Shown here in pieces: positions 17,144 through 19,647 of a stretch of 64,000 nt of DNA (its first letter is position 1; each line of letters begins with the position of its first letter). A model generated the notes under the pieces. That model had not been told where the DNA came from, made no database searches, and saw only the letters and a list, made by a program, of their open reading frames with translations. A program made the position numbers and the translations under genes. The stretch lies in assembly GCF_057098645.1 (NCBI RefSeq), contig NZ_CM169472.1. One strand, written 5' to 3'.

Positions 17144-17680
17144 TTAACTGCGCGGGTAATGGATGAGGGAATGAAAATGTACGATTTGCTCCCCACCATT
17201 ACGATAGATATGCGTGACGTCTGCAGCAAATCGAGCGCCTTCCCCACAATTAAGGCTCTGCCATTCTCCATCAACGCACAGATCAAGTTGTCCATCAATG
17301 ACGACGACATGTTCGATTACCCCCTTCTCATGGGGCGTCGATTCGCTTATTGCACCGGGTGCCATCTGAATCGAGAAGTGTTCAAAGCAGAGTTGTGGAT
17401 CATAAGGAAACAGCGAAGTGATCACCATTGCCTGCTGTTGTGGATCATAAACTGAAGGCGTAGCGGACTGTGGCGGAGAAATAAATGTCGAAAATGGCAC
17501 GTTCAACCCAGTGGCAATTTTCCATAATGTCGCGACCGTCGGGCTGGACTCATTACGCTCAATCTGTCCTAACATTGCTTTAGAAACGCCCGTCGCTTCT
17601 GCCAGTCGCGAAAGACTCCAGCCGCGCTGCTGACGTAGTTGTTTAAGTGTGGTGGATAAAAAGCGAGCAAGATTTTCCAT
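17144..17680 (-). CDS. sutR: HTH-XRE / cupin-domain transcriptional regulator SutR (YdcN)
   Basis: 178 aa; N-terminal XRE HTH (LKQLRQQRGWSLSRLAEATGVSKAMLGQIE) plus C-terminal cupin. Confidence 0.85.
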   Translation of the reverse strand: MENLARFLSTTLKQLRQQRGWSLSRLAEATGVSKAMLGQIERNESSPTVATLWKIATGLNVPFSTFISPPQSATPSVYDPQQQAMVITSLFPYDPQLCFEHFSIQMAPGAISESTPHEKGVIEHVVVIDGQLDLCVDGEWQSLNCGEGARFAADVTHIYRNGGEQIVHFHSLIHYPRS

Positions 17681-17771
17681 GCGACTCCTCCGGCAAAACG
17701 GAAGTTTATCACTTGTGCGTTATAACGGACAAATGCTACGGTGCCTGTACGCTATAACGCACGAGGTGACT

Positions 17772-18944
17772 ATGCGTCTGTTTTCTGTTCCTCCACCCAC
17801 GCTACTGGCGGGGTTTCTGGCGGTATTAATTGGCTACGCCAGTTCAGCGGCAATAATCTGGCAAGCAGCGATTGTCGCCGGAGCCACCACTGCACAAATC
17901 TCTGGCTGGATGACGGCGCTGGGGCTGGCAATGGGCGTCAGTACGCTGACTCTGACATTATGGTATCGCGTACCTGTTCTCACCGCATGGTCAACGCCTG
18001 GCGCAGCTTTGTTGGTCACCGGATTGCAGGGACTAACACTTAACGAAGCCATCGGCGTTTTTATTGTCACTAACGCGTTAATAGTCCTCTGCGGCATAAC
18101 GGGACTCTTTGCTCGTCTGATGCGCATTATTCCGCACTCGCTTGCGGCGGCAATGCTTGCCGGGATTTTATTACGCTTTGGTTTACAGGCGTTTGCCAGT
18201 CTGGACGGTCAATTTACGTTGTGTGGAAGTATGTTGCTGGTATGGCTGGCAACCAAGGCCGTTGCGCCGCGCTATGCGGTAATTGCCGCGATGATTATTG
18301 GGCTCGTGATCGTTATCGCGCAAGGTGACGTTGTCACAACTGATGTTGTCTTTAAACCCGTTCTCCCCTCTTATATTACCCCTGATTTTTCGTTTGCTCA
18401 CAGCCTGAGCGTTGCACTCCCCCTTTTTCTGGTGACGATGGCATCGCAAAACGCACCGGGTATCGCAGCAATGAAAGCAGCCGGATATTCAGCTCCTGTT
18501 TCGCCATTAATTGTATTTACTGGATTGCTGGCACTGGTTTTTTCCCCTTTCGGCGTTTATTCCGTCGGTATTGCGGCAATCACCGCGGCTATTTGCCAAA
18601 GCCCGGAAGCGCATCCGGATAAAGATCAACGTTGGCTGGCAGCTGCCGTTGCAGGCATTTTCTATTTGCTCGCAGGTCTGTTTGGTAGTGCCATTACCGG
18701 GATGATGGCTGCCCTGCCCGTAAGTTGGATCCAGATGCTGGCAGGTCTGGCGCTGTTAAGTACCATTGGCGGCAGTTTGTATCAGGCGCTGCATAATGAG
18801 CGTGAGCGCGACGCGGCGGTGGTGGCATTTCTGGTAACGGCAAGTGGATTGACGCTGGTCGGGATTGGTTCTGCGTTTTGGGGATTAATTGCCGGAGGTG
18901 TTTGTTACGTGGTGTTGAATTTAATCGCTGACAGAAACCGATAA
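17772..18944 (+). CDS. ydcO: BenE-family (benzoate-like) membrane transporter YdcO
   Basis: Polytopic membrane ORF; ATG at 17772 (MRLFSVPPP) chosen over the longer track ORF that would overlap sutR. Confidence 0.8.
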   Translation: MRLFSVPPPTLLAGFLAVLIGYASSAAIIWQAAIVAGATTAQISGWMTALGLAMGVSTLTLTLWYRVPVLTAWSTPGAALLVTGLQGLTLNEAIGVFIVTNALIVLCGITGLFARLMRIIPHSLAAAMLAGILLRFGLQAFASLDGQFTLCGSMLLVWLATKAVAPRYAVIAAMIIGLVIVIAQGDVVTTDVVFKPVLPSYITPDFSFAHSLSVALPLFLVTMASQNAPGIAAMKAAGYSAPVSPLIVFTGLLALVFSPFGVYSVGIAAITAAICQSPEAHPDKDQRWLAAAVAGIFYLLAGLFGSAITGMMAALPVSWIQMLAGLALLSTIGGSLYQALHNERERDAAVVAFLVTASGLTLVGIGSAFWGLIAGGVCYVVLNLIADRNR

Positions 18945-18950
18945 TAAAAA

Positions 18951-18970
18951 GCGCCATCTAACGATGGCGC
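18951..18970. terminator. Bidirectional terminator shared by ydcO and ydcL
   Basis: GCGCCATC-TAAC-GATGGCGC hairpin with A-tract upstream and T-rich sequence downstream. Confidence 0.6.
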
Positions 18971-18978
18971 GTCTGGAA

Positions 18979-19647
18979 CTACTTTTTGTTAACGTCAAAC
19001 ATGGTGGCATCGGTCGCCATGTCATCAATAACTTGTTTAATATTTTCGAAAGCCATTGGCGTACTTTCGTTATTCAGGTCTTTACCTTCGCCCTGACGAA
19101 CGACTTTGATAACCGGTTTATTAGTCGCTGCATCAATCAGCTCACCTTCAAAATACAAGCGAGTATCCATGGTTCGGTGGCCTGTAGCCATTTGCGTCCC
19201 CGCAACCACTAATGCAACAGGAACCACTTCATAGAATTGCAGCCCTTCTTTGCTGGTATCTACACCGGTAATGGCCCCACGGAAAATCAGACTACGCGGC
19301 CCCGCGGTGGTAACCAGTGGTTTACGCTGCGCTATCGCTTCTTTCATTTCGGTGTTGGTATAGTTCAAAATTTTATCCAGAACTTTCTGCCCTACCTGGG
19401 TCGAAGGTTTTGGCACCGGATAATAAGTGATTGGGTTCCAGACGATGCTGTCATATTTGCTTTGATCAAAACTCGGGTCTACCCAACGTAAAACCGGTTT
19501 ACCTGTAGCCGAGGTTGTTTCTTTTAAATCAGAGTAATTGTTTAAAAAACCAGAATATTTATCTGGCTGGGTGATTTTAGAGGCACAACCAGACAGAGCC
19601 AACAAGCCGCATAAAGCTGCAACTTTCGCAAATGATGTGGTACGCAT
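18979..19647 (-). CDS. ydcL: Lipoprotein YdcL (DUF3313)
   Basis: 222 aa with lipobox LALSGC after signal peptide. Confidence 0.85.
   Translation of the reverse strand: MRTTSFAKVAALCGLLALSGCASKITQPDKYSGFLNNYSDLKETTSATGKPVLRWVDPSFDQSKYDSIVWNPITYYPVPKPSTQVGQKVLDKILNYTNTEMKEAIAQRKPLVTTAGPRSLIFRGAITGVDTSKEGLQFYEVVPVALVVAGTQMATGHRTMDTRLYFEGELIDAATNKPVIKVVRQGEGKDLNNESTPMAFENIKQVIDDMATDATMFDVNKK

Follow-up and report, generated by a model that had tools for sequence, protein, structure and literature searches.

In the 64,000-nucleotide stretch of DNA analysed here, hereafter the window, the ydcO-ydcL junction corresponds exactly, as the empty allele, to the site that carries the insertion sequence IS609 in E. 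coli K-12. Very probably this junction is native and has never been interrupted, with one ancient IS609 insertion having taken place in a K-12-type ancestor and the window lineage having kept the empty state. As such, the empty ydcO-ydcL site is an ordinary, already annotated insertion-sequence polymorphism and is already known. It matters little beyond bookkeeping, since IS609 at ydcL/ydcO is annotated in K-12 and the presence or absence of IS elements between E. coli lineages is routine. What has been gained are refinements, namely an insertion point within a stop codon together with a one-residue change in YdcO, a TTAT target rule, population frequencies and the hot-spot behaviour of the site.

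The two flanking genes, one on each strand, converge 3'-to-3', with the ydcO stop codon TAA at 18942-18944:

Positions 17772-18944, plus strand: ydcO, encoding a BenE-family transporter of 390 aa that ends in ...DRNR (open reading frame list; Pfam BenE, E = 1.4e-161).
Positions 18979-19647, minus strand: ydcL, encoding a DUF3313 lipoprotein of 222 aa (open reading frame list; Pfam DUF3313, E = 4e-63).
Positions 18945-18978, no strand assigned: the ydcO-ydcL intergenic spacer of 34 bp, with equal spacing in loci L011-L013.

In the list of open reading frames, that of ydcO starts 41 codons further upstream at a GTG (431 aa; additional stretch at 17649-17771), and the start in K-12 and RefSeq is the ATG at 17772 (390 aa). 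The stretch upstream of this ATG overlaps the start region of the divergent gene sutR.

In K-12 MG1655 (NC_000913.3), ydcL (b1431) and ydcO (b1433) lie on either side of a feature annotated as "insertion sequence:IS609" at 1503161-1504908 (1748 bp), which contains the tnpA pseudogene yncK and insQ/ydcM (tnpB, b1432), the latter annotated as a "putative RNA-guided DNA endonuclease". When the flanks were extended by exact matching, the ydcO-side match between window and K-12 ran up to 18943 and the ydcL-side match began at 18944, the number of bases shared, duplicated or missing being zero:

Between positions 18943 and 18944, no strand assigned: the IS609 insertion point of K-12, splitting the ydcO stop codon as TA|A (exact flank extension against NC_000913.3).

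Base-by-base comparison with the window revealed neither target duplication nor junction ambiguity at the K-12 IS609, and the junctions of strain M15 are the same as those of K-12. A blastn search of the window with IS609 returned no IS609 sequence. The K-12 protein ends in ...DRNRY, carrying one extra C-terminal Tyr, because the insertion splits the ydcO stop codon and the right end of IS609 supplies T plus TGA. For the same reason, namely an insertion inside the stop codon with the right end completing ydcO, the annotated IS609 and ydcO overlap by 4 bases in K-12.

These results bear on most of what the original prediction had claimed. The distance of 34 bp between the two genes was exact, as the ydcO TAA ends at 18944 and ydcL ends at 18979, and the IS200/IS605-family element (insQ/ydcM) that had been placed between ydcL and ydcO in K-12 is indeed the IS609 annotated there. 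An insertion elsewhere in K-12, which had been named as the observation that would speak against the claim, was looked for by flank alignment, and the IS609 boundary coincides with 18943|18944. The interval 18945-18978 had been put forward as the empty site; the site is empty, but the insertion point falls one base outside that interval, in the ydcO stop codon. The proposed non-K-12 background agrees with the strain comparison, in which several O145:H28 genomes (RM12761, RM13516 and RM13514 among them) matched the window at 100.0% identity over 20 kb and K-12 matched it at 98.6% over tehA-ydcL.

The base pairs next to the insertion point carry the target motif of the element:

Positions 18944-18947, minus strand: TTAT, the IS609 target motif (TAM), immediately 5' of the would-be IS609 left end.

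This TTAT forms the last four bases of a minus-strand TTTTTAT in the ydcL terminator tail described below. We oriented five independent chromosomal IS609 sites from left end to right end (ydcL/ydcO; a TetR-family gene by ytfB; yedK; yeaR-yeaQ; and a DUF3251 gene by nrdR). At all five the left flank ends in TTAT, the element starts with CCGGTGCGCC and ends with GGATGTCAA, and no flank duplication was seen at any of them. A TTAT flank combined with the absence of duplication is the signature of the single-strand "peel-and-paste" transposition of the IS200/IS605 family, and in a survey of TnpB-carrying elements the cleavage motifs most often listed were TTAT for the left end and TCAA for the right end (PMC9956272). 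The protein domains point to the same family, with Y1_Tnp found by Pfam in the O157 tnpA product and OrfB_IS605, Cas12f1-like_TNB and HTH_OrfB_IS605 in InsQ. The left-end and right-end hairpins of IS609 fold at -11.1 and -14.6 kcal/mol, respectively (DNA parameters). IS609 thus has a Y1 (HUH) TnpA, a TnpB and subterminal imperfect palindromes and is devoid of terminal inverted repeats, as expected of a member of this family. The top strand of the K-12 element is the plus strand at 1.503 Mb; with oriC at ~3.93 Mb and dif at ~1.59 Mb, it would occupy the template for the lagging strand in the clockwise replichore, in keeping with the family rule.

The 34-bp spacer holds one hairpin, GCGCCATC-TAAC-GATGGCGC, followed on the minus strand by a T-rich tail:

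Positions 18951-18970, minus strand: predicted intrinsic terminator hairpin of ydcL, with an 8-bp stem and a 4-nt loop (folding; terminator scan).
Positions 18941-18950, minus strand: T-rich tail of the predicted ydcL terminator, TTTTTATTAT, sharing bases with the ydcO stop codon and including the TTAT target (scan and direct reading).

The hairpin has a centroid energy of -15.3 kcal/mol and a z-score of -3.4 against dinucleotide shuffles, 1 of 200 shuffles being equally stable. A scan for terminator patterns found it on the minus strand only (8 pairs, 6 of them G-C, with the tail TTTTTATTAT) and gave no site at 18951-18970 on the plus strand, the direction of ydcO, where GTCTGGAAC comes directly after the stem and a T-run begins only 13 nt later. 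A GC-rich stem-loop directly followed by a T/U tract, by which intrinsic terminators are recognised, is accordingly present for the ydcL strand and absent for the ydcO strand. A strong hairpin (<= -8 kcal/mol, within 60 nt after the ydcL stop) was also found in 80 of 80 loci of other Enterobacteriaceae, its stem sequence varying from genus to genus; in E. albertii the stem shows a compensatory double change, from CATC/GATG to CGTC/GACG. The hairpin is therefore real and tied to ydcL. By its sequence pattern it would be a canonical intrinsic terminator for this gene, and for ydcO it would be a stabilising stem-loop or a weak terminator at best. Of the "single shared terminator hairpin" originally predicted, the single hairpin and its role as ydcL terminator were upheld; the word "shared" found only partial support, because the plus-strand stem has no directly adjoining T-run and the U-tract rule does not hold for ydcO. 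It could also be imagined that the hairpin is the relic of a mobile element, either REP-like or a subterminal palindrome of the IS200/IS605 type, rather than a terminator, in which case the site would not be truly clean. Both REPs and the ends of IS200/IS605 elements are imperfect GC-rich palindromes, and elements of this family have inserted recurrently at the site. Yet the stem is perfect and then runs into the T-run of a terminator pattern on the ydcL strand, a hairpin occupies the same place after ydcL in all 80 loci from many genera with differing stems, and the hairpin bears no similarity to the IS609 ends. We regard such a relic as extremely improbable, and the hairpin is treated below as the predicted ydcL terminator.

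The state of the junction outside E. coli was inspected in the same 80 loci, obtained by taking one genome per species with YdcL, and insQ was next to ydcL in none of them (0/80), whatever the genus. In three Escherichia lineages, which share about 89% identity with the window over tehA-ydcL, ydcL and ydcO flank a 34-bp spacer that holds the same hairpin, and insQ is absent. GGAT or TGAT (the latter in L012) replaces the TTAT of E. coli in two of the three, which therefore could not have hosted IS609. In E. albertii NBRC 107761 (L014, 4170-4260) the junction is likewise empty; ydcO has been lost there and a short remnant of its 3' end follows the ydcL terminator. In the same genome, tblastn matches residues 24-222 of YdcL only. 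Because the divergent Escherichia lineages and E. albertii are empty, the uninterrupted arrangement is, by these comparisons, ancestral for Escherichia; the ancestral status claimed at the outset is supported by the three divergent lineages and by the E. albertii junction remnant. Outside Escherichia, a distance of ~2 kb between ydcL and ydcO is usual, as in most loci of Citrobacter, Enterobacter and Klebsiella, and the 34-bp junction of the Escherichia loci is therefore not common to most of those genera. In Citrobacter sp. wls619 (L015, 4208-6170), a gene for an EamA-family transporter and one for an AraC-family regulator lie between ydcL and ydcO.

Within E. coli both alleles are frequent. 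Among 5426 complete genomes, the empty junction (an 80-bp query matched contiguously) was found in 2019 and the junction between the IS609 right end and ydcO (80 bp) in 3265 (~60%), while IS609 was present anywhere in the genome in 5015. A 1034-bp query across the junction was bridged in 2135 genomes; 2135 bridged against 2019 contiguous therefore leaves ~116 genomes with a short insertion. Among the matches listed, empty strains included O157:H7, O145, UM146, O25b:H4-ST131 and O2:K1:H4, and filled strains included K-12 derivatives, W, O111:NM, O103:H2, O8:H8 and O6:H16. The empty and filled groups would correspond to phylogroups B2/E and A/B1, respectively, the phylogroup of each genome being judged from strain names and general knowledge. 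Strains can thus be told apart simply by this site, which is empty in O145:H28, O157:H7 and ST131-type strains and filled in K-12, W and O111/O103-type strains.

IS609 is not the only element of its family to have reached this junction. The one case examined out of the ~116 short insertions, strain AR_0372, carries an IS200C copy 2-5 nt from the IS609 point, an element that is absent from the window:

Positions 18946-18948, no strand assigned: IS200C insertion point of strain AR_0372, in the A-run, with a 709-bp insert (L003, 2005-2710) and a 3-nt ambiguity.

Moreover, Escherichia sp. MOD1-EC7003, which falls outside typical E. coli and is 94-97% identical to the window, has a 46-bp IS609-like relic (L010, 4199-4244) at the identical TTAT, so that the history of the site comprises more than one event. 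In this relic, CCAGTGCGCCTTATATCCCCGTCCTTCAGTGCGTGGAGGATGCCAA, the beginning of an IS609-like left end is joined to the hairpin and terminus of the right end; most of ydcO and sutR has been deleted beside it. Its left-end variant, with TTATAT in place of GTAAAA, recurs at 95.6% identity on ~60-kb mcr-type or IncI2-like plasmids in 162 genomes. In pMCR-H9 (NZ_CP029184.1; L090, 1500-1545) and 161 others, each plasmid has a single copy of the 45-46-bp unit, located between repA and the hok/gef region; in pMCR-H9 its left flank does not end in TTAT. The plasmid unit is either a tiny mobile unit or a recurrent product of deletion between left end and right end. We considered the MOD1-EC7003 relic as proof that the insertion predates E. 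coli and rejected this as the main reading, given that its left end is the TTATAT variant that is also plasmid-borne; by the sequence of this end, it is probably a separate event and not the K-12 insertion. In E. coli HH45 (L004, 341-382), the junction contains 42 extra bases, in which the terminal 21 nt of the IS609 right end are followed by a long poly-C run; this may reflect an imprecise IS609 deletion or, considering the poly-C, an assembly artefact. Altogether, the 7 nt directly following the terminator stem have received insertions from three different elements of the IS200/IS605 family, which is the behaviour of a local hot spot.

How the two alleles arose can be proposed as follows. 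In the O145:H28 chromosome the junction would be native and never interrupted, running from the ydcO stop codon through an A/T-rich stretch to the intrinsic terminator of ydcL. The T-tail of this terminator, TTTTTAT, would offer IS609 the short single-strand TTAT at which it is targeted. A single IS609 would then have inserted 3' of this TTAT by peel-and-paste, leaving no duplication, in an ancestor from which K-12 and other E. coli lineages descend. The insertion would have split the ydcO stop codon, its right end giving the T plus TGA that add the Tyr to K-12 YdcO, and the window lineage would have retained the empty state. We infer both that the insertion was a single ancient event and that the window lineage was never occupied. 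The IS609 copies at ydcO in K-12 and M15 are ~1% apart (18 substitutions and a 5-bp deletion in 1748 bp) and their tnpA lesions differ, with a stop codon in K-12 and the 5-bp deletion in M15; this divergence and the different lesions fit old orthologous copies that would have been inherited vertically. The M15 copy at the ydcO site (L002), with its 5-bp tnpA deletion, is almost identical (3 substitutions) to the copy at the yedK site of GN4741 (L006), and apparently this tnpA-defective IS609 has either moved with TnpA acting in trans or been converted.

Alternatively, the window lineage may once have been occupied, its empty state being the scarless donor joint left after TnpA-mediated excision of IS609. 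IS200/IS605 elements were reported to excise precisely, with the original sequence restored (Meers et al. 2023), so that an excised site is indistinguishable by sequence from one that was never occupied. IS609 copies with intact tnpA (O157 allele WP_000604943.1) exist at other sites in the related O157 lineage, and a transposase able to excise the element has therefore been available; the presence of IS609 somewhere in 5015 of the 5426 genomes and the IS609-like relic at the identical TTAT in MOD1-EC7003, a lineage near E. coli, point in the same direction. Against excision, however, the divergent Escherichia outgroups are empty, two of them lacking the TTAT needed for either insertion or excision, and the O157:H7, O145, ST131 and UM146 strains among the matches listed are all empty. 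One gain is also more parsimonious than one gain followed by several precise losses. The relic of MOD1-EC7003, being a different left-end variant, suggests a separate insertion rather than a remnant of the K-12 one. On balance, we consider a past occupation of the window lineage improbable and retain a native junction with one insertion in the K-12-type ancestor.

The persistence of IS609 at this site also raises the question of its TnpB. InsQ has an intact 402-aa open reading frame with all three TnpB domains in 6 of 7 IS609 copies, and insQ shows a pN/pS of ~0.2-0.4 between copies; tnpA is defective in 5 of 7. The IS609 TnpB was listed among the TnpBs that retain critical residues (PMC12781874). 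A literature search on insQ/ydcO and on IS609/TnpB returned nothing on this locus. Scanning the K-12 IS609 against Rfam gave no match above any gathering threshold. Three sub-threshold matches (HgcC, 22.2 bits with a cut-off of 50; RAGATH-18, 25.4 with a cut-off of 44.9; sot0042, 15.5) cluster at the 3' end of insQ and the right end, where an omega-RNA would be encoded, and are hints at best. On the minus strand of the window, TTAT is followed by TATCGGTTTCTGTCAGCGAT..., identical to the flank of the K-12 right end for 44 nt by the junction:

Positions 18924-18943, minus strand: putative guide-matching segment of the InsQ omega-RNA, identical to the K-12 IS609 right-end flank (role by analogy with Meers et al.).

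Because the minus strand matches the K-12 right-end flank next to TTAT, the window carries the TAM and a perfect-match target for a putative K-12-type InsQ/omega-RNA, a layout like that of the donor joints that are cut by TnpB in other elements of the IS605 type (Meers et al. 2023). Perhaps, then, the window junction is a substrate for RNA-guided homing by InsQ and its omega-RNA, although we regard this as speculative and rather unlikely, the activity of InsQ being putative. If it were true, the InsQ/omega-RNA of a filled chromosome would cut the empty allele whenever the two meet, e.g. by conjugation or transduction, and IS609 would be copied into the break by recombinational repair. A homing drive of this kind could explain the occupation of this single site by IS609 in ~60% of E. 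coli genomes, the maintenance of an intact insQ while tnpA decays independently by lineage, and the hits of three different IS200/IS605-family elements in the terminator-adjacent TTTTTAT. The filled and empty alleles form a natural pair in which homing by TnpB (InsQ) could be assayed in E. coli itself.

Compared with known systems, the window junction resembles the donor joint described for IS200/IS605 elements such as IS608, ISDra2 and the ISGst elements (Meers et al. 2023), in that the TAM TTAT abuts the right-end-flank sequence with neither duplication nor scar; it differs in most likely being the original, never-occupied target rather than the outcome of an excision. It also shares with the Rho-independent terminators of convergent genes a GC-rich 8-bp stem and a 4-nt loop between the two genes, flanked by an A-tract and, on the opposite side, a T-tract, yet here the U-tract rule holds for ydcL alone and bidirectional function is putative. 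With the IS609 locus of K-12 it has the location and the flanks in common, the window being the unoccupied allele that retains the TTAT target; unlike K-12, it is free of IS609 sequence, and its ydcO keeps the native TAA beside the ydcL terminator hairpin.
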